Positions 21,373-45,514 of a stretch of DNA of 64,000 nt are shown here, piece after piece (position 1 is the stretch's first letter; each line of letters opens with the position of its first letter). The stretch is taken from the IMG/VR virus record IMGVR_UViG_3300042868_009047. One strand, given 5' to 3'. The notes below the pieces were generated by a model. That model had not been told where the DNA came from, did no database searches, and saw nothing but the letters and a program-made list of their open reading frames with translations. Position numbers and translations under genes: made by a program. Origin of the DNA: a virus (taxonomy: Duplodnaviria > Caudoviricetes).

Positions 21373-24087
21373 TTATGCATTATAGGCCATTTGGTTTATA
21401 ATTTGTTTGGATACGATATTTGTTGCATCTTTAATACCATTGTCATCTAAATCATGTTGTGTCATATCAATTGTACCTGTTAAGTTTAAGGTAACAATAG
21501 GTTTTTTAATTGATAAATTATCTTGGGCGCTTTGTGTAGCTTTTTGGTCAAAAAGTAATAAAGCGTCATCTTTTCTACCTTTTATGATTTTATCTTCTGT
21601 TTTTATCATTAAACCATCTTTATTGATAACATTATCACCACTAGAGTAATCTATGTAAGCGTTAGTGGCATCTAAACCTATTGATACCAATGTACCGACA
21701 CCAGGAACGGTTGATGCTATACCAGATGCTAAGGCTATTGTTGCTTGCCCATAGTCACCATCCATAGCTTGGCCTATAGCATCAAAAACACCAATAGCTA
21801 AACCAAGACCTGGTATTCTTTTACCAACGGTTTTAAAAGCGTTTTTTTGCATATTTTTTGCAATTATATGGGCACTAGCTTCAATCATTTTTGCACCTGA
21901 CTTATTAGTTAAACCTGTCATGTCCATACCACCATTTTTTTCATTGTAGATGGTTATTTTTTCTACAAGATTTTCTTGTTGGGTTTTAAATAAAACACTG
22001 TCTTGACCTGCGACTATAAGAGCGTTTTTTTGCATTTCTAATCCACTTTTTTCAAGTGACGTTACACCTAGTGTGGCATTATCTATTAGTTTACCAATTT
22101 TTTCAAGAAGGAAACCACCAGCAAATTTTAATATTGGTTTAAAACCAATATCAAGTCCATCAAGGAATTCGTAAATTGTTTCACTAAATTTTTCACCAAA
22201 TTCTTTTTTAGGGTCTTTCCAAATACTAAGGATTTTATCCATAATAATAGACATTGTGTTAAATATTTGCATTAAATTTTGACGAAAAGACCCCCCTTCA
22301 GAAAAAGCTTTATCTAAAAATATTATCATCTCGCTTGATATAGCTTTAACTGTTTCATCTAAATTGTTTAATGTGTTATGATTAGTTAGTAGATTGTTTA
22401 ATTCAACAAAAACTTGAGAAAAAGCTGTTGTAAATCTATCCACAACAATACCTATTCTTTCAGCTAACGAGTTTCTTAATAATGCTGATTGTTGATTTTT
22501 TCTTTCTTGGTTAAGAATAGCGTATATTTCCGTATTACCAGGTATATTCTCTAATCTTTGTATTACACCGTTTGATAACCTTATACTGTAAGAACCATCC
22601 TCATTTAATGTCATTAAATTTGTTAATAATTCATTTTGTTCATCAGTTAAACCAAATGTTGATACATTTCTTTTTCTTAACGCTTCAATTTTATCTGTAT
22701 ATTTAGCATCTTCAATAGCTGCATTAAATAACTCATCAGCATCTTGACCTATTGACTTAGCAAACTCTCTTATTAATTCACGATCAGCTGGTGATATTTG
22801 AAATCCGTTTCTACCTTTAAATGCTTTACCTTTAACAACTTCCATTAAATCAGCTGTTAGTTGTAAAGGATCTTCAATACTTTTAGCCATTAACATAAAA
22901 GGATCACTAAAATAAGTGGCAAATTTACCGCCAAGTAACCTAGCTGTTGCCGCAACTTCTATTGCTGTTTCTGGGTCAGTAAAAGCATCCTTAAAGGCAC
23001 CCACACTTTTTTTAACATCAATTCTAGCTTTTTGCGTTTTAATAACTAATTTTACCATACCCTCTAAACCTTTTTCAATACCAAAACCAGTTAGTTCAGT
23101 TATTGTCTCACTGGTTTTTTTAAGAACTTTTGTTTGGTTTTGAGAAACGGCCATGGTTTTATCTCTAACAAAACTTGTAAATTTTAATGTTCTATCTAAA
23201 GAATAACCAAGGTTTTCAAAATTACCAACAAGTTCACTAGCGGCACTAACACCAAGTCCAGTACCTAAACCAAGTTCGATTATTGATTTAAATTCAACAC
23301 CACTAAAAACTCTATTTCTGTTTGTTAATTTGTTATAACCTTCATATGCTTCACCAACTTGTTCAATACTACCACCAACATCTAAAACTTCTTGCATTAT
23401 CATCGGCATTTTATTTAAGAATTTAACGGATTCTTGTGCCAATAAACCAGAGTCGGCCGAAATACCACCAACAAGTTTTTGCATTTTTAAAAATTTTTCA
23501 TATACAGCACTAAAACCAAAATCGGCACCAAGTATATTACTTAAAAATGAAAAACCTACTTTAACAATACTAACAGCAACATTAAATAACATTTTTGCTG
23601 CGCCAATAATAACACCACCAACCACCATTATGGCAGCTAAATAAGGGTTACCAGATTTTGCGCCAGTTTCAACTGTATCAGCAACACTATCCATAGCCTC
23701 TTTAACATTTTTTTCAATTTCTAGTTGGGCTCTTCTTTTAAATAATGCTTGTCCTAACTCATTCTTATGGTTATTTATCGCTTTATTTTCTTTTTCTTTA
23801 TAATGATTTATTTGTTCTTCAAGAAATTGTATATTATTTTTTCTTTTTTGACGTTCTTTATAAATCTTTTCCTTTTCTTTTTGTACTCTTTTAAAATACC
23901 CCCATAAACTTTCGTTTTTGGCATCCCATTGATACATTTCTTTTTTTTGGGCAATAGCATCGTTATACGTATCAATTACATTTTGTACGTGCCCTTCTAT
24001 TATTTGTTGTGAATTGGCCGAAGCTGCTGTATTAACTTGCAGCTTTTTTACCATTTCATCTATTGCTGATGCTATATCTCCTTGCAT
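21373..24087 (-). CDS. Tape measure protein, paralog B (904 aa)
   Basis: Same architecture as 18473-21319, e.g. AIEVAATARLLGGKFATYFSDPFMLM and NLGYSLDRTLK vs NLGYSLSTTLK. The C-terminus has Gly/Ala-rich hydrophobic segments (KRIPGLGLAIGVFDAIG...VPGVGTLVSIGLD). Confidence 0.8.
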   Translation of the reverse strand: MQGDIASAIDEMVKKLQVNTAASANSQQIIEGHVQNVIDTYNDAIAQKKEMYQWDAKNESLWGYFKRVQKEKEKIYKERQKRKNNIQFLEEQINHYKEKENKAINNHKNELGQALFKRRAQLEIEKNVKEAMDSVADTVETGAKSGNPYLAAIMVVGGVIIGAAKMLFNVAVSIVKVGFSFLSNILGADFGFSAVYEKFLKMQKLVGGISADSGLLAQESVKFLNKMPMIMQEVLDVGGSIEQVGEAYEGYNKLTNRNRVFSGVEFKSIIELGLGTGLGVSAASELVGNFENLGYSLDRTLKFTSFVRDKTMAVSQNQTKVLKKTSETITELTGFGIEKGLEGMVKLVIKTQKARIDVKKSVGAFKDAFTDPETAIEVAATARLLGGKFATYFSDPFMLMAKSIEDPLQLTADLMEVVKGKAFKGRNGFQISPADRELIREFAKSIGQDADELFNAAIEDAKYTDKIEALRKRNVSTFGLTDEQNELLTNLMTLNEDGSYSIRLSNGVIQRLENIPGNTEIYAILNQERKNQQSALLRNSLAERIGIVVDRFTTAFSQVFVELNNLLTNHNTLNNLDETVKAISSEMIIFLDKAFSEGGSFRQNLMQIFNTMSIIMDKILSIWKDPKKEFGEKFSETIYEFLDGLDIGFKPILKFAGGFLLEKIGKLIDNATLGVTSLEKSGLEMQKNALIVAGQDSVLFKTQQENLVEKITIYNEKNGGMDMTGLTNKSGAKMIEASAHIIAKNMQKNAFKTVGKRIPGLGLAIGVFDAIGQAMDGDYGQATIALASGIASTVPGVGTLVSIGLDATNAYIDYSSGDNVINKDGLMIKTEDKIIKGRKDDALLLFDQKATQSAQDNLSIKKPIVTLNLTGTIDMTQHDLDDNGIKDATNIVSKQIINQMAYNA

Positions 24088-24942: not shown

Positions 24943-24967
24943 AAAACCCACCTTGATAGTGGGTTTT
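24943..24967 (-). terminator. Intrinsic terminator after the chaperone genes
   Basis: AAAACCCAC-CTTGATA-GTGGGTTTT hairpin followed by a U-rich tract on the minus strand. Confidence 0.75.
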
Positions 24968-24969
24968 AT

Positions 24970-25143
24970 TTATCTTCTTCCAGCTTTCGCCTTATTCATC
25001 TCTCTTTCTCTTGCTTCTTTTATCTTATCATTTTCTTCCATCAAGATATCAATAAATTTCCTTCTCTCAAAAACTGGCATTGCCATTACGTCAGCATAGG
25101 TAAAATTAGCATGTTTAACCAGGATATATGATTCATACATCAT
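24970..25143 (-). CDS. T4 gp51-like tail/baseplate assembly chaperone (57 aa from ATG 25143; frame open upstream to ~25240, see finding)
   Basis: YILVKHANFTYADVMAMPVFERRKFIDIL motif; directly follows the gp26-like gene. Confidence 0.7.
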   Translation of the reverse strand: MMYESYILVKHANFTYADVMAMPVFERRKFIDILMEENDKIKEAREREMNKAKAGRR

Positions 25144-25156
25144 CTGGTTTCTATAA

Positions 25157-25915
25157 TCAAACGTAAGGCCAAAGAAATTTGGCTGTAATAGGAAGTTCAC
25201 CAAAAAAAAACTCTCCACTAGGAGCCTGTATATTAATGGTCAAATCAAGACCTGGTTCGTTGTCAGATAGATGCTTCCTGAACTCCGCTGAATCCATTGG
25301 TGACATGGTGTCAATAAATTGTGCAATAGCAACTTTTTCTCTAATACCATCTATTTCAGTAATTTGGGTTTGTAACCTAAGAGTCATAACTTGACTAATA
25401 GCATTTGAACCCATTTTTTTGGTTCTTGATTGATCTTCTTTAACCAACTTATCATCTTCATCAGATGTTAAATATTTAAATTTAACCGTTTTCTTGCATT
25501 TTGGTAAAGTAAATGAACACTCACCGTTTTCATCTGGTTGTAGAACATTCTCTTTCATTGGTAATTGACTAATATCAATATCCTCTGTAAATTTTTCACC
25601 TGTTTTAGGATCAGTTAATTCAACTGGGTATATTTCACCGTATCCTGTTGCTCTTAAAAAGAAAATGATAGCGTTTCTATCACCTGGTAATAATTGACCA
25701 GCTTTGATATCTTTATCTAAGATCTTTTTTTCTAATAAAACATCCAATACCTTACCGTTTTGTAATAAGTTTGGGGATGTTAAAATGTTCTCATCAGACG
25801 CTGTCATATAAGCAACCTTGATAGTATCTTTTTTGTTTTTGTAAAATTTACCACCTGAAGGTAAGCTAATCACGTCATGTGCTGGCTCAAAGTAAACTTG
25901 TTGTCCGTTATCCAT
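25157..25915 (-). CDS. T4 gp26-like baseplate hub / tail assembly chaperone
   Basis: ISLPSGGKFY, MTASDENILTSPNL and GDRNAIIFFLRATGYGEIY motifs; located between the tube and tape-measure genes. Confidence 0.8.
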   Translation of the reverse strand: MDNGQQVYFEPAHDVISLPSGGKFYKNKKDTIKVAYMTASDENILTSPNLLQNGKVLDVLLEKKILDKDIKAGQLLPGDRNAIIFFLRATGYGEIYPVELTDPKTGEKFTEDIDISQLPMKENVLQPDENGECSFTLPKCKKTVKFKYLTSDEDDKLVKEDQSRTKKMGSNAISQVMTLRLQTQITEIDGIREKVAIAQFIDTMSPMDSAEFRKHLSDNEPGLDLTINIQAPSGEFFFGELPITAKFLWPYV

Positions 25916-26031
25916 ATTTTTTATTTATTTAAATTAATTATAGTATATTATTAAATAGTGTAAACAGTATTTTTTTTAAAATTTACCGTTTAACCGTTTT
26001 TTGACGGTACTTATCATAATAATACACACAT

Positions 26032-26433
26032 ATGGCTAAAAAGAAAAGTAAAATAGGAAAATTATTTAAAAAAATGGGTGGAACTTCTAACCTTGAAGTA
26101 TCTTTTGCTGAAATACTTACAAGTTTGGGTGTAAAGTTTGAACAACATTTTGTCTTTAAAAAACGAGAATTTGATTTTTTGTTGACTGAACATAACATTT
26201 TGGTTGAAACTCACGGTTGTTTTTTCCATTGTTGTAAGAAACACAACCCAGAGGCCAAATACGCCTTTCAAAGACGAAACTTAAAGAATGATCAGTACAA
26301 GGTTAAAATCGTCAAATTTGACCCCGCATACACCTTAATGGTAATTTGGGAACATGAGTTGGAAACTCAAAACGTATTAACTGAAAAAATTAATACTTTC
26401 ATTGGAAAATACAGCAAATTGCTTAATGGATAA
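26032..26433 (+). CDS. Vsr/DUF559-like PD-(D/E)XK endonuclease
   Basis: FEQHF..KREFDFLLTEHNILVETHGCFFHC...NDQYK...LMVIWEHEL pattern. Confidence 0.8.
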   Translation: MAKKKSKIGKLFKKMGGTSNLEVSFAEILTSLGVKFEQHFVFKKREFDFLLTEHNILVETHGCFFHCCKKHNPEAKYAFQRRNLKNDQYKVKIVKFDPAYTLMVIWEHELETQNVLTEKINTFIGKYSKLLNG

Positions 26434-26483: not shown

Positions 26484-26972
26484 TTAGTAGACCAATATAC
26501 AACGGTCCATTCTCAATGTCACGGTGATATCTGCGATTTCATCATCGCTGTATTCTAACGATCCAAAATCAGCATTGGTTATAAATGTACCTTGAAGGAT
26601 CCATTTTTCTACAACAACACCTGTTGGATCAAGCATTTCTAATTCAATATCTTTTTTATAACCAGCAGCATAACCCATTCTTCCTGTTACTGATTCAGCA
26701 TGTAAACGAACCCATTCCATTAATGCTTGTGAAGCAGAAGGACCAATTGGATCTTTAAACGTAACGTCAATAGCATCCCAAGTAAATCTACCAGCTACCC
26801 AGGTAGAAGTATTTAAGAACGGAATCTCAACTTCGTTTATTGCGATTTTTGGTCTTGACGTAGAGATTACAAACCACTCGTTAATACCAAGTGAGCTTGG
26901 AAATCTTAAAATAAACCTGTTCTTTCTTTTTGGTTCGTAAGGAACAGGCATTTTCATTAGTAAGTTAGCCAT
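26484..26972 (-). CDS. Tail tube protein (T4 gp19-like)
   Basis: YEPKRKNRFILRF, TSRPKI, GRFTWDAIDVTFKDPIGPS, YKKDIELEMLDPTGVVVEKWILQG and ADFGSLEYS motifs. Confidence 0.93.
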   Translation of the reverse strand: MANLLMKMPVPYEPKRKNRFILRFPSSLGINEWFVISTSRPKIAINEVEIPFLNTSTWVAGRFTWDAIDVTFKDPIGPSASQALMEWVRLHAESVTGRMGYAAGYKKDIELEMLDPTGVVVEKWILQGTFITNADFGSLEYSDDEIADITVTLRMDRCILVY

Positions 26973-27273: not shown

Positions 27274-30200
27274 TTATATATTATCAAATAGTACGTTTTG
27301 TGGAGTTACTGTAAATTCAAGTTCAATGAATTCCAAAGTAGGTGTTGGTTTGATAAAGATTTTACCTTTTAAAGTATTTCTATCGTTATCTTCAACGTCC
27401 ATCGCAACGCTAACTCTAAAGTCTGTTAAACCTCTTTCTTTTCTAATGTTATCCAAAATTGGGTTAACCAATGACAAGAATTGATTTCTAACTGTGGTAT
27501 CGTTTGGATCAAATAATAATCTCTTAGATACACTCATAATCAATCTTCTTGCTTGTAATAACAATCTTCTAATGTTAAGTCTATCAAGAGCGCTTGATTT
27601 AATTTGCAAGTTTCTGTTACCCCAGATAACAACACCAATGTCTGAATAAGTTGCTAATGGGTTAATTCTTCCTGGATATAAAACATCTCTAGCTTCTTGA
27701 TCAAGAACAATACGAGCTCTATTACATTTTACTAAACCTCTATTGTAACCAGCAGTTGCAAACCAAGGGAACGCTACGTTATCAGTATAAGCCATATTTC
27801 TTACTACCTCAGCAGTAGGTGGAATATACAAGTTTGCGTTATTCTCTGTATCTGTGATTTGAATCCAAGGGTAGTAAACCGCAGTGTAGTTAGAATCAAT
27901 ATCAGTGTTTTCTAATTCACTAACGATATCTTCAGCATAGTACCAACTTTCAGTATCTGAAGGGTTGTTATTGTTTAACAACTTGATATCAGGTAATGTT
28001 GGTAAGTAAATAGCATCCAATCTCTTCTCTTCAACAACTTCAATAGCGTCTCTAACCAAGTCAGTATTATTTAACACGTCAATACCAGGTGTAGCCAAGA
28101 TATTGATAGCTGTTTCTTCAGGGTTTTGGAATGTTTTGATACCATACATTGTAGCGTAGTAATCAGAAGTACCGAATAATTCAGCGTATTCAACGTTTGT
28201 AAATGTATCAAATGTACCAGCTACGAAACCAGTTCTACCGATTTTATAATCATCCGTATTCGTTCTGTTAACTCTATATTCATCCCAACCATCAAAACCA
28301 CCAGAAAATAACGTTGTGAATTTTCTTGTTCTCATGTTATTATATGGGTGAGTTGATGTTCCATCAACAACGATAGCATCAACGAATGAAGCAACACCAA
28401 CAGCAAAAACTTGTTCACCAGTTACGGAATCAATAACACTGCTTGCGTTAATATCCATGTGGAAACCTTTTGTTTTAGTTGTGTAATCATCACCAGTATT
28501 ATAAGCGTTATCACCTATTGTGCTGATCTTACCTTTGAATAACAATAAATCTCTATCAACACCAAATTGACTTGAGAAACCTAAGTAATGTTTTCTTATT
28601 ACATCACCACTAGAAACCGTAGCATTAGCAAATGGTGGGTTGTAAATCGTATCACCAGGTGCATAATATTTAAGTTTGTATGGTATTTCTGGAACAGCTG
28701 TTGCTGTGTAACCAGTTAAAGCGTTTGTTCTAAATTCATAACCTTCGAAACCAGCTGGAACACCATCTGTAGGTGCGTTTATAGCCATTTCAAGTACAAC
28801 GTAAGAACTCTTAAGTGGGTATTTGTTATCAATTGTACCGATTTTTCTACCAACAAAGTTATCCAAACTTTCATCCATTGTACAATCAACAAATTTTTCA
28901 AGTATAGAAACGTTTGCATCGGTATCACTGAATAATCTAACGTAGATATCAAATGTTTTCTTAGATAAGTCAACATTAGTGATTGAAGCTTTAATTTCAG
29001 TATTAGCGTTAGCACCATCAGAGATTGAAATTAATCTAAACAATCTTTGTGGTAAACCACCTCTTAATTCAGATACAAAGAAAGGTGTTACAGGTGATTG
29101 ATATTGGAATCTATAGTGATCCCAGTTATTAACAGATGTTAATTCACTGTATAAACCTTTAATTTTACCGTTTAATCTACCAAATTTTAAAGAAGCATCG
29201 TAAACATCCTCAACATAGATATAAGAATCTTTATTGTTAGGTGTTGTACCAATTACTTTTTTAATGTAGTTAGATTTTGTGCTATCTAAAGAAACTGTGT
29301 ACGTAAATGTGCTACCAGTTGGGTTTGCGGTTGTACCAGTTAACTCAAAAGCTAAATAAGGATCATTAACAATGTCTGCTGGAGCAACCATATCTAATGT
29401 ATTAACTTTATAACCTAATATATCTGAAGTATAAGTACCTCTGCTTCTTATAGTAGCAACGTTTTTATTGTGACCATCTATAAATGGATCAACCGTTAAA
29501 TCAACATTGAATAACTCTAAAACACCATTAATTTTTTGTGCACCAGCAGATGTAAATGTATGACAATATAAAGCAAATGAAGGCCCGTTATATGTTTGAG
29601 TGGCTGTGTTATACGCTAACTCATTGTTTAATATAAAAGCATCTCTATCAGCAGTTGGAACACCAAATGGTAATTCATATGCATCAATGTAAGTTGGTGT
29701 TAAACTGTTTGTGGCTGCATCAACTGTTAAATCAGTGTCCATATCATCGGTCAAAAGACCCCAATATAAAGCGTTACCAATATAAAAATCTTGTGTGTTA
29801 TAACCACCGATACTTGTGAAGAATTGATTAAATACTGTATCAAAATCAGTTGCAGCAACACCAGTTGCGGTAGCAATATAATCAATTAAATCTGTGTTAC
29901 CAGAACCACCAGTAATATAGAAAGTATTATCATCAGTATCAAATTGAAAATTAATTGTTGTTTGAGTAACACCAGTATGTGTTAACGTTGACTCATCACA
30001 CGCACCTAATGTTTTAATAACCCAAGCCATACCAGCATCGTAGCCAGATAAACCCAAAAGTCTTGTTACATACATTTGGTTTGATTGTGTTAAATACTGT
30101 TTTGCTATGTATGGTAATTCATACTTTACAATTTGTGTATTTTTAAATTTTTCTGGATTAGTACCACCAAAAGTAGTCTTAAATTCATCAAAATTTCTGA

Positions 30201-30339
30201 TGAACATTGGTTGGAACGCTGGACCCTTTAAGGTTTCACCCACTACACCTAATGTTGTAACACCAACTGTCTCAGTTGTAAATGTTAAATCTTTTTCGGT
30301 TGTGTAGACACCTGGAGACGCATAAACTTTGTTTGCCAT
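27274..30339 (-). CDS. Tail sheath protein (T4 gp18-like, 1021 aa)
   Basis: N-terminal YASPGVYTTEKD and GETLKGPAFQP. C-terminal INILATPGID, YYPWIQI, PWFATAGYNRG, RINPL, WGNRNLQ, LDRLNIRRLL and IFIKPTPTLEFIELEF. Confidence 0.97.
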   Translation of the reverse strand: MANKVYASPGVYTTEKDLTFTTETVGVTTLGVVGETLKGPAFQPMFIRNFDEFKTTFGGTNPEKFKNTQIVKYELPYIAKQYLTQSNQMYVTRLLGLSGYDAGMAWVIKTLGACDESTLTHTGVTQTTINFQFDTDDNTFYITGGSGNTDLIDYIATATGVAATDFDTVFNQFFTSIGGYNTQDFYIGNALYWGLLTDDMDTDLTVDAATNSLTPTYIDAYELPFGVPTADRDAFILNNELAYNTATQTYNGPSFALYCHTFTSAGAQKINGVLELFNVDLTVDPFIDGHNKNVATIRSRGTYTSDILGYKVNTLDMVAPADIVNDPYLAFELTGTTANPTGSTFTYTVSLDSTKSNYIKKVIGTTPNNKDSYIYVEDVYDASLKFGRLNGKIKGLYSELTSVNNWDHYRFQYQSPVTPFFVSELRGGLPQRLFRLISISDGANANTEIKASITNVDLSKKTFDIYVRLFSDTDANVSILEKFVDCTMDESLDNFVGRKIGTIDNKYPLKSSYVVLEMAINAPTDGVPAGFEGYEFRTNALTGYTATAVPEIPYKLKYYAPGDTIYNPPFANATVSSGDVIRKHYLGFSSQFGVDRDLLLFKGKISTIGDNAYNTGDDYTTKTKGFHMDINASSVIDSVTGEQVFAVGVASFVDAIVVDGTSTHPYNNMRTRKFTTLFSGGFDGWDEYRVNRTNTDDYKIGRTGFVAGTFDTFTNVEYAELFGTSDYYATMYGIKTFQNPEETAINILATPGIDVLNNTDLVRDAIEVVEEKRLDAIYLPTLPDIKLLNNNNPSDTESWYYAEDIVSELENTDIDSNYTAVYYPWIQITDTENNANLYIPPTAEVVRNMAYTDNVAFPWFATAGYNRGLVKCNRARIVLDQEARDVLYPGRINPLATYSDIGVVIWGNRNLQIKSSALDRLNIRRLLLQARRLIMSVSKRLLFDPNDTTVRNQFLSLVNPILDNIRKERGLTDFRVSVAMDVEDNDRNTLKGKIFIKPTPTLEFIELEFTVTPQNVLFDNI

Positions 30340-44202: not shown

Positions 44203-44232
44203 ATGGGGAATTTAATATTCCCCATTTTTTTT
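44203..44232 (+). terminator. Intrinsic terminator
   Basis: ATGGGGAAT-TTAAT-ATTCCCCAT followed by a T-run. Confidence 0.85.
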
Positions 44233-44293
44233 GTACTTTTGTTTGATTTTTAAACCTTTTTTCCTATTATTATGGAAACATAATATAAAACCT

Positions 44294-45514
44294 ATGAGTA
44301 AAATTAATATATTAGTACAACCAAACGATAGAGCTGGTTCAGGTAAATATCGATGTGTAGACCCACATGTAACACTACAGAATAATAACGCGGATGATTT
44401 TTTTGTTGAGATTAATGAAAACGTTAATTTTAATGATGATGGTTACCTAAAAAAATTCCAGTTGTTCTTTTTCCATAGAGCCCCAGGTGGTAATTATTTA
44501 CAAGGTGCTGAAATCATCAAAAAAATTAAATCATTTGGTGGTAAAGTTATTATTGACTTAGATGATCACTGGGATTTAGATCCATCACATGGTTTATATC
44601 AAACAGCAAAAAAAAATAATATACCAGGCCACACGATTAATATCGTAAAAGAAGCTGATTTAGTAACCGTGTCAACGCATTTTTTACAAAAAGAGGTTTT
44701 AAAATATAACAAAAAATGTGTTGTTTTGGCTAACGCAATAAACCCAAATGAAACACAATTTAAACCAAAACCAAGTGAGTCAGATAGGTTAAGATTTGGC
44801 TGGTTAGGTGGCTCATCACACGCTAAAGATATCGAGTTATTAAAAGGTGTACCTCAAAGGTCAAATGAGTACGGGGATAAGATGCAAATTGTATTATGTG
44901 GTTATGACACAAGAGGTACTGTTAGGGCTCAAAACCCTGAAACAGGTGAAATGATGGAAAGACAAATGCAACCTGTTGAAACAACTTGGTTTATGTATGA
45001 AATATACCTAACCGATCATTTTAAAACGATTAAAGATCAGGAATATATTAAACATTTGTTGAAATTTGAGCAAGACCTAAATTACGATGATACAAATATG
45101 CCATATAGAAGAATATGGACTAAGCCAATTGATACATACGCAAAGGGTTATAATGAATTTGATGTGGCTTTAGCACCGTTAAATGATAGTTCTTTTAATA
45201 AATATAAATCCCAGTTAAAGGTAATTGAGGCTGGGTTCCATAAAAAAGCTATAATAGCTCAAAATTATGGGCCTTACACCATTGATTTGGTTTCTGCAAT
45301 TGAAAAGGGTGGCGGTTTTAATTCAAAAGGTAACTCTTTATTAGTTGAATCAAGTAAAAACCACAAACAATGGAGTCAACACATTAAAAGGTTAATTGAT
45401 AACCCAAATCTTGTTGAAGATCTTGGTGAAAAACTATATGAGACCGTTAAAGACAGGTATGATATAAATCACGTAACAAAATTAAGAGCTGAAATTTATA
45501 AAACATTAATATAA
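44294..45514 (+). CDS. GT-B (GT4-like) glycosyltransferase, likely start 44294 (MSKINIL)
   Basis: GSGKYRCVDPH, IIDLDDHW, RFGWLGGSSHAKDIELL and FDVALAPL...FNKYKSQLKVIEAG. Confidence 0.85.
   Translation: MSKINILVQPNDRAGSGKYRCVDPHVTLQNNNADDFFVEINENVNFNDDGYLKKFQLFFFHRAPGGNYLQGAEIIKKIKSFGGKVIIDLDDHWDLDPSHGLYQTAKKNNIPGHTINIVKEADLVTVSTHFLQKEVLKYNKKCVVLANAINPNETQFKPKPSESDRLRFGWLGGSSHAKDIELLKGVPQRSNEYGDKMQIVLCGYDTRGTVRAQNPETGEMMERQMQPVETTWFMYEIYLTDHFKTIKDQEYIKHLLKFEQDLNYDDTNMPYRRIWTKPIDTYAKGYNEFDVALAPLNDSSFNKYKSQLKVIEAGFHKKAIIAQNYGPYTIDLVSAIEKGGGFNSKGNSLLVESSKNHKQWSQHIKRLIDNPNLVEDLGEKLYETVKDRYDINHVTKLRAEIYKTLI

Follow-up and report, generated by a model that had tools for sequence, protein, structure and literature searches.

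The locus considered here raises the question of whether two adjacent open reading frames (ORFs) of a tailed phage, one resembling gp26 and the other resembling gp51 of T4, are two genes or one. They lie on the minus strand of a 64,000-nt stretch of DNA from an uncultured lake phage (Duplodnaviria; Caudoviricetes; IMG/VR record IMGVR_UViG_3300042868_009047), and this whole stretch is referred to below as the window. The upstream ORF encodes a protein of 252 amino acids (aa), and the small downstream ORF, of 57 aa, is in the +1 frame relative to it. A preliminary description, made from the letters of the window, had proposed that slippage on a run of nine U residues joins the two in the +1/-2 frame, giving a short and a long product like G and GT. 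An open and conserved +1 frame, missing start codons and gene order all support a pair of this kind, and we consider it highly probable that the two ORFs are a single gene subject to recoding in some form. The U9 run is probably the place where the frame changes, with a second candidate site 33 nt downstream.

At the junction, 14 codons ahead of the TGA (25159-25157) that ends the 252-aa ORF, the minus strand reads GAG TTT TTT TTT GGT. The -1 frame meets a stop immediately after the run (TGG TGA), and in the +1 frame 10 open codons precede the run and 79 follow it, up to a stop at 24972-24970, so that a +1 shift would give a fusion of ~315 aa. The sequence therefore confirms the run, the blocked -1 frame, the +1 frame leading into the 57-aa ORF and the size of the fusion as they had been described. 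Homopolymer runs are not rare in the window, which holds two of nine or more and 26 of eight or more. The other run of nine, A9 at 44608-44616, lies in the ORF 44231..45514, where it is read as K-K-N; a stop closes each of the other two frames within 14 codons, and the run looks ordinary.

Relatives of the locus were gathered by a protein-guided scan of viral contigs, which gave 52 loci with 62-98% identity, 50 of them covering the junction, and by a profile-guided scan, which added 80 loci with 34-50% identity; 99 unique loci of the family were analysed in all. The preliminary description had suggested looking in such relatives for a poly-T run and for an open +1 frame with conservation ahead of the ATG at 25143, and all of this was found. 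T9 is kept in every one of the 50 clade loci that cover the region, and also in the divergent members L146-L149, and in the same 50 the +1 frame is open across the junction for 74-79 codons. In the family as a whole, the +1 frame crosses the stop of the gp26-like ORF in 99/99 unique loci (41-92 codons), and the third frame closes quickly. The peptide encoded in the +1 frame is conserved as FF.L[ST]..Y[RK]...MP..ER from the FF motif onward (73 diverse loci), and near the 3' end of the first ORF there is a conserved slippery sequence, T9 in the clade and UUU_CGY or UUU_UUU_CGN/UGG in its relatives. The frame, the peptide hidden in it and the nucleotides of the junction are thus seen to be conserved, and from this we infer slippage.

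The absence of start codons bears on whether the second ORF is expressed in the ordinary way. A gene caller would start the 57-aa ORF at the ATG of 25143, and if the two ORFs were independent genes, with U9 merely encoding Phe-Phe-Phe, it would fit well that the window's own subclade has ATG ATG at 25143-25138, that a promoter-like and a terminator-like site bracket both ORFs and that the other run of nine in the window is plainly just coding. However, in relatives with ~70% identity, none of ATG, GTG and TTG occurs from the run as far as an internal Met some 40 codons on, and the peptide upstream of that Met is conserved nonetheless, so that the ATG at 25143 is probably not the real N-terminus. 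Since the ATG is missing from this ~70% clade, the peptide before it is conserved family-wide, and the invariant codons of the run (described below) have no explanation at the protein level, we regard two ordinary genes as extremely improbable. A different way of doing without a frameshift would be for the +1 ORF to initiate on its own at UUG (25203-25201) or GUG (25200-25198), with the U-run acting as an S1-type enhancer and a free protein of 82-83 aa as the product. Both codons are invariant in the clade, the invariant block around them could be a translation initiation region, and the ORF list of the window does contain a GTG-started ORF of 82 aa (25218..24970). Against this, L146 and L147 have TTA CTG at the position, which offers no start, yet they keep T9 and the +1 domain; the sister groups discussed below also lack any start, 14 loci of the family have no ATG, GTG or TTG anywhere in the open +1 frame, and T4 gp51 is a covalent fusion of both parts. 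Independent initiation is therefore very unlikely. No in-frame long form occurring naturally was found among 120 listed of the 1782 relatives, in which the one 324-aa protein is instead extended at its N-terminus, and blastn searches, as well as tblastn searches with the small ORF, gave no match among cultured phages.

If the gene is recoded, the codons themselves point to where the frame changes. In 33 unique sequences of the clade there are ~94 fully conserved codon columns with degenerate codons, and the use of a single codon is confined to F236, F237, F238, G239, E240 and L241, that is, T9 followed by GGTGAACTT (block A), and to F247 and L248, that is, TTTCTT before TGG (block B). TTT is found in 33/33 sequences at each of F236-F238, where the other conserved Phe columns mix TTT and TTC, and the GGT, GAA and CTT that follow are each 33/33 as well, though CTT is otherwise a minor Leu codon. 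The 11 positions of GGTGAACTTCC, the 3' context of the run, have an entropy of 0 throughout, and it is in the most divergent members alone that this context varies (ACT GAA CTT; AGT GAA CTG; GGT GAC ATG). The start of the run is the exact point at which synonymous variability drops, from about 0.4-0.5 to about 0.2. By this comparison of codons, the conservation of T9 is far beyond chance. In the structural model the run encodes a beta-strand (E236-240), which the +1 reading, F-F-L-V-N-F, would keep; this explains why dual coding is strict over the strand whereas the loop after it varies freely.

The same codon position is occupied by another motif in sister groups that lack the T9. These groups were defined by a search of 5.8 billion proteins, and the DNA of their members was then compared. 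At the position of T9, group II has NNN TTT CGY ACT GAA CTT CC, group III has TTT CGC and group IV has TTT TTT CGT. The Arg codon at this upstream site is CGY in 16/16 unique sequences, whereas Arg elsewhere in the same genes is AGR in 90/108 cases in group III and in 30/30 in group IV. The loss of the T-run from distant relatives, which had been named as a finding that would tell against slippage, is therefore a contradiction in appearance only, as these relatives carry a different +1 motif. Further downstream, group IV has TTC TTC TGG, which is not slippery, so that the upstream site alone remains there, and three divergent members of the T9 clade alter block B in incompatible ways (L049, TTT CTT TAC; L148, TTT TTA TGG; L149, TTC CTT TGG). 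Taken together, these comparisons lead us to favor the U9 run, with moderate confidence, as the main slip site, in place of the UUU_CGY of the sister groups.

The second candidate, UUU_CUU_UGG (25177-25169), stands at the position of the family-wide FF motif, and it is conceivable, though rather unlikely, that recoding is real and that the +1 shift takes place here, at what would be the ancestral motif, through movement of tRNA-Phe from UUU to UUC or of tRNA-Leu from CUU to UUU as in prfB, with the U9 block as an accessory element. In 12 loci of the UUU_UUU_CGN group the +1 frame has a stop one codon before the FF motif, and the change of frame must fall there within the five to eight codons that contain UUU_UUU_CGN, so that the counterpart of the downstream site is the only possible window for the shift. 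Within the clade TTT and CTT of block B are each 33/33, the variation keeps the periodicity of frame 0 to about 45 nt past the start of the run and takes that of +1 from there on, and both the Flavobacterium phage immuto and group II share the motif without T9. A fusion made at this site would also be colinear with T4 gp51, in which, as in the predicted fusions, the spacing from FF to MP is 30-31 residues. However, no single rule of slippage fits UUU_UUA_UGG in L148, UUC_CUU_UGG in L149 and UUU_CUU_UAC in L049, the UUC_UUC_UGG of group IV is not slippery, and a shift at the downstream site leaves unexplained both the 20-nt invariant block and the conservation of UUU_CGY upstream.

The preference for U9 has to be held against several other observations that weigh on the opposite side. 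All the differences that clade members show between blocks A and B are silent in frame 0 and change amino acids in +1 (L/R/P/Q and similar), as expected if the +1 frame is not read there. The large UUU_UUU_CGN sister group must shift at the downstream position, beside its stop, and immuto and L003 are without the upstream motif. UUU_UUU_UUU_G does not present the hungry A-site codon of the sister groups, its A-site GGU not being rare. When the 10-residue bridging segment was compared with a profile of the sister groups, +1 was the better frame in the window clade and frame 0 in groups II and IV, which does not discriminate. A run of nine is also within chance in a window of 31% GC, where a model of independent, identically distributed letters expects about six. 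The small 4-bp hairpin (CNCC-4 nt-GGNG) that lies 2 nt 5' of the run, and whose significance is uncertain, has a single covarying pair, with 27/30 sequences paired, five pair types and three broken, and ~7% of random codon pairs are estimated to do as well. Finally, contigs from four lake metatranscriptome runs, belonging to a 95%-identical relative, show U9 without insertions or deletions; contigs drop minority forms, so that slippage in the majority of transcripts is excluded and no more. It could also be that U9 and the downstream motif both operate.

With these reservations, the expression of the gene, the rate of the shift and the roles of the two products can be pictured as follows. Ordinary decoding would yield the 252-aa gp26-like protein, a hub and tail assembly chaperone, and a minority of decoding events would pass into the +1 frame within 25210-25169 and yield a protein of ~315 aa, whose added C-terminal domain would be the counterpart of the extra C-terminus of T4 gp51. 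On U9, a move of the peptidyl-tRNA-Phe by one base forward or by two bases back would leave its pairing perfect, and a slip by -1 would end at UGG UGA. Slippage of RNA polymerase on the run, giving U8 or U11 transcripts, would yield the same protein, and transcriptional slippage on runs of nine A or T is known from Thermus dnaX and from insertion sequence (IS) elements. The window resembles these in its nine-nucleotide run and in the small hairpin that closely precedes the run on the 5' side; it differs in that U9 alone appears in the RNA contigs (minority forms being invisible in them) and in that the non-homopolymer motifs of the sister groups point to the ribosome. UUU_CGY in L144 and L145 is such a motif, and it speaks for a +1 slip of tRNA-Phe on the ribosome there and, by extension, on the U-run as well. 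Given U9, we thus think it fairly likely that the slippage is ribosomal rather than transcriptional. The sites of +1 frameshifting in influenza A PA-X (UUU_CGU) and in E. coli prfB (CUU_UGA) offer a similar comparison: where the window has its run, the sister groups have UUU_CGY, in which the Arg codon is rare, and the second candidate site contains CUU_U. The window itself differs, as its nine U residues are followed by GGU and the A site is occupied by neither a rare codon nor a stop.

RNAalifold also predicted the helix of the 5' hairpin, which is weak (-5.6 kcal/mol, z-score 0), and other folds around the run had z-scores from 0 to -0.6, with pairs that are not kept in relatives. The 6-bp hairpin which had been pointed out downstream of the run is present in the sequence, and the second candidate site falls inside it, but it is not conserved: 18 of 30 relatives lack its outer pair 73-88 and 14 of 30 its outer pair 75-86, and none shows a compensating double change. 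A more elaborate history, which we consider decidedly unlikely, would have the slip site migrate and change its type, from UUU_UUU_CGN by the stop to UUU_CGY 11 codons upstream and then to U9, the last acting partly via polymerase slippage aided by the 5' hairpin and giving three products, of 252 aa, 239 aa (-1, UGG UGA) and ~315 aa.

The domain shared with T4 suggests what the two products are. The 252-aa protein of the window matches PF12322 with 45.0 bits (cut-off 24.5) over residues 17-232, and T4 gp26 (208 aa) and gp51 (249 aa) match the same family over their full length with 216 and 178 bits and also match each other (BLASTP E 2e-6). They are the short and the long form of one fold, T4 gp51 having about 48 extra C-terminal residues, which are covered by phrog_634, 'baseplate hub assembly catalyst'. 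This PHROG is matched by 10 of 73 aligned +1 peptides of the relatives, the best at E 1.2e-8, and DUF6760 is weakly matched by 21 of the 73; the window's own +1 peptide has no match to phrog_634. An alignment by hhalign to residues 219-244 of T4 gp51 reached E 0.039, and as comparisons of the profile with single T4 sequences were weak overall (E 0.04-0.13), the relation to gp51 rests on the Pfam and PHROG models instead. By these matches the unshifted product is, as far as sequence comparison tells, the counterpart of gp26 and the shifted product that of gp51. Gp26 and gp51 of T4 are baseplate hub assembly chaperones (Leiman et al. 2010, PMC3004832), whose roles are still poorly understood (PMC3004832). 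T4 itself differs from the window in that the two forms are encoded by separate, divergently transcribed paralogous genes.

On the evidence of the locus and hundreds of relatives, gp26 and gp51 would then be the short and the long form of one chaperone, which T4 makes from two genes and most of its non-T4 relatives from a single one by recoding. Cyanophages S-H38 and P-RSM4, Pelagibacter phage HTVC008M and Sinorhizobium phage phiM7 appear to use another form of the same device, since from the U_UUU_UUC or U_UUU_UUU that closes gp26 an open -1 frame leads into their short gp51, whose annotated Met is preceded by a conserved peptide. As in the window's family, gp26 ends on an FF motif, which is encoded by the U-run in these four phages, the window differing in its +1 direction. 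To judge from their sequences, the public records of the four appear to be mis-annotated as two genes. That the gp51 of cyanophages reaches no more than about 20% of its length in T4 was noted without explanation by Sullivan et al. 2010 (PMC3037559), and recoding would explain the puzzlingly short 'gp51' of both cyanophages and marine phages. The annotation of a very abundant environmental phage gene is corrected in this way. Our literature search found no report of a gp26/gp51 frameshift, and the elements that seem to be new here are a U9 variant that acts by +1, evidence for a further shift position, upstream and shared with the sister groups, and a turnover of slippery motifs between two positions. 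With the window's clade there is now a natural series of three slippery motifs that substitute for each other at two places in one gene, which should be useful for studies of how +1 sites evolve.

The analogy with other long-tailed phages can be carried further. Levin 1993 and Xu, Hendrix and Duda 2004, the second of which is listed in PMC9024508, reportedly describe gpG and gpGT of lambda and a conserved frameshift of tail assembly chaperone genes, a pair which T4-type phages have so far been treated as lacking. The window resembles lambda in that the overlapping ORFs have the tail tube gene ahead of them and the presumed tape measure behind them, in that the slippery site is near the end of the first ORF, in that the second ORF has no start of its own and in that the predicted fold has its best, if modest, matches among tail assembly chaperones. 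It departs from lambda in the direction of the shift, +1/-2 and not -1, and in a protein that is about twice the size and has no sequence relation. The window phage very probably makes its gp26/gp51 pair from one gene, as lambda makes G and GT.

The fold in question comes from an AlphaFold (AF2) model of the 252-aa protein with a predicted local distance difference test (pLDDT) score of 89.8 and a predicted template modelling score (pTM) of 0.83. Foldseek with this model against the PDB returned nothing at E <= 0.001, and a sequence search of the PDB gave no match. The three best matches of an exhaustive VIA-align search were 3klu (YqbN, which we take to be XkdN-like), with Z 6.0 and a root-mean-square deviation of 3.8 over 85 aligned residues in model residues 128-222, 3fgx (rbstp2171, uncharacterised), with Z 5.9 at residues 8-101, and 2ob9 (the HK97 tail assembly chaperone), with Z 4.7 at residues 1-93; these Z values are modest, below 8, and may reflect a common arrangement only. 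The matches suggest that the gp26-like fold consists of two tandem chaperone-like domains (residues about 1-101 and 128-222), in which case PF12322 would have arisen from the duplication of a chaperone domain. This resemblance is to be taken as a lead and not as proof; together with synteny and recoding it fits the G/GT analogy. A predicted complex of the tube protein with the +1 domain had a score of 0.00, which gives no verdict and counts neither way.

Table 1. Positions of the features discussed, in window coordinates unless a locus is named.
Feature	Position	Strand	Remark
U9 run, codons F236-F238 (plus-strand A9)	25202..25210	-	favored +1/-2 slip site; codons invariant in the clade
GGTGAACTTCC, nucleotide-invariant 3' context of the run	25191..25201	-	G-E-L-P in frame 0, V-N-F in +1, TGG TGA in -1
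UUU_CUU_UGG	25169..25177	-	second candidate +1 site
gp26-like ORF, 252 aa	25157..25915	-	short product; Pfam PF12322 T4_baseplate, phrog_150
+1-frame continuation	24970..25209	-	bridging stretch, then putative gp51-like C-terminal domain; open in all relatives, conserved part from 25176
57-aa ORF	25143..24970	-	+1 frame relative to the gp26-like ORF
ATG of the 57-aa ORF	25141..25143	-	as a gene caller would place it
4-bp hairpin 5' of the run	25213..25224	-	
6-bp hairpin of the preliminary description	25168..25183	-	not conserved
-1 form in S-H38, P-RSM4, HTVC008M and phiM7	L137 3447-3674; L138 1381-1605; L139 1369-1590; L140 1363-1575		
Promoter-like site upstream of the gp26-like ATG	25937..25964	-	11/12, consensus match only
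Terminator-like hairpin and T-run	24943..24967	-	10 pairs, strong; directly after the stop of the +1 ORF
Tail tube gene (gp19-like), upstream neighbor	26484..26972	-	phrog_4542, 1e-28
Tail sheath gene	27274..30339	-	family matches
904-aa protein, candidate tape measure	21373..24087	-	position only, as in relatives whose records name a tape measure there

The gp26-like gene stands among tail and baseplate genes, the block running on the minus strand in the order sheath, tube, 252-aa ORF, 57-aa ORF, 272-aa ORF and 904-aa ORF, with an endonuclease-like ORF of the opposite strand between the tube gene and the 252-aa ORF. With the promoter-like and terminator-like sites on either side, the recoded pair may be a transcription unit of its own within this block. 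The tube gene upstream of the overlapping ORFs is identified by family match, and the tape measure downstream is named in the records of relatives only. The 904-aa protein at that place has no match to a tape-measure family, no hits in NCBIfam and no similarity to the tape measure of immuto; it has a peptidase- or endolysin-like segment at residues 719-815 and hydrophobic, Gly-rich stretches. The endonuclease-like ORF (26032-26433, plus strand) has weak matches of the Vsr/HNH type, and the same spot in related loci holds a Vsr-like or a T5orf172/MUG113 ORF (L144 992-1408; L148 464-799; L149 284-538). From these sequences, this place appears to be a hot spot for the insertion of homing endonucleases.

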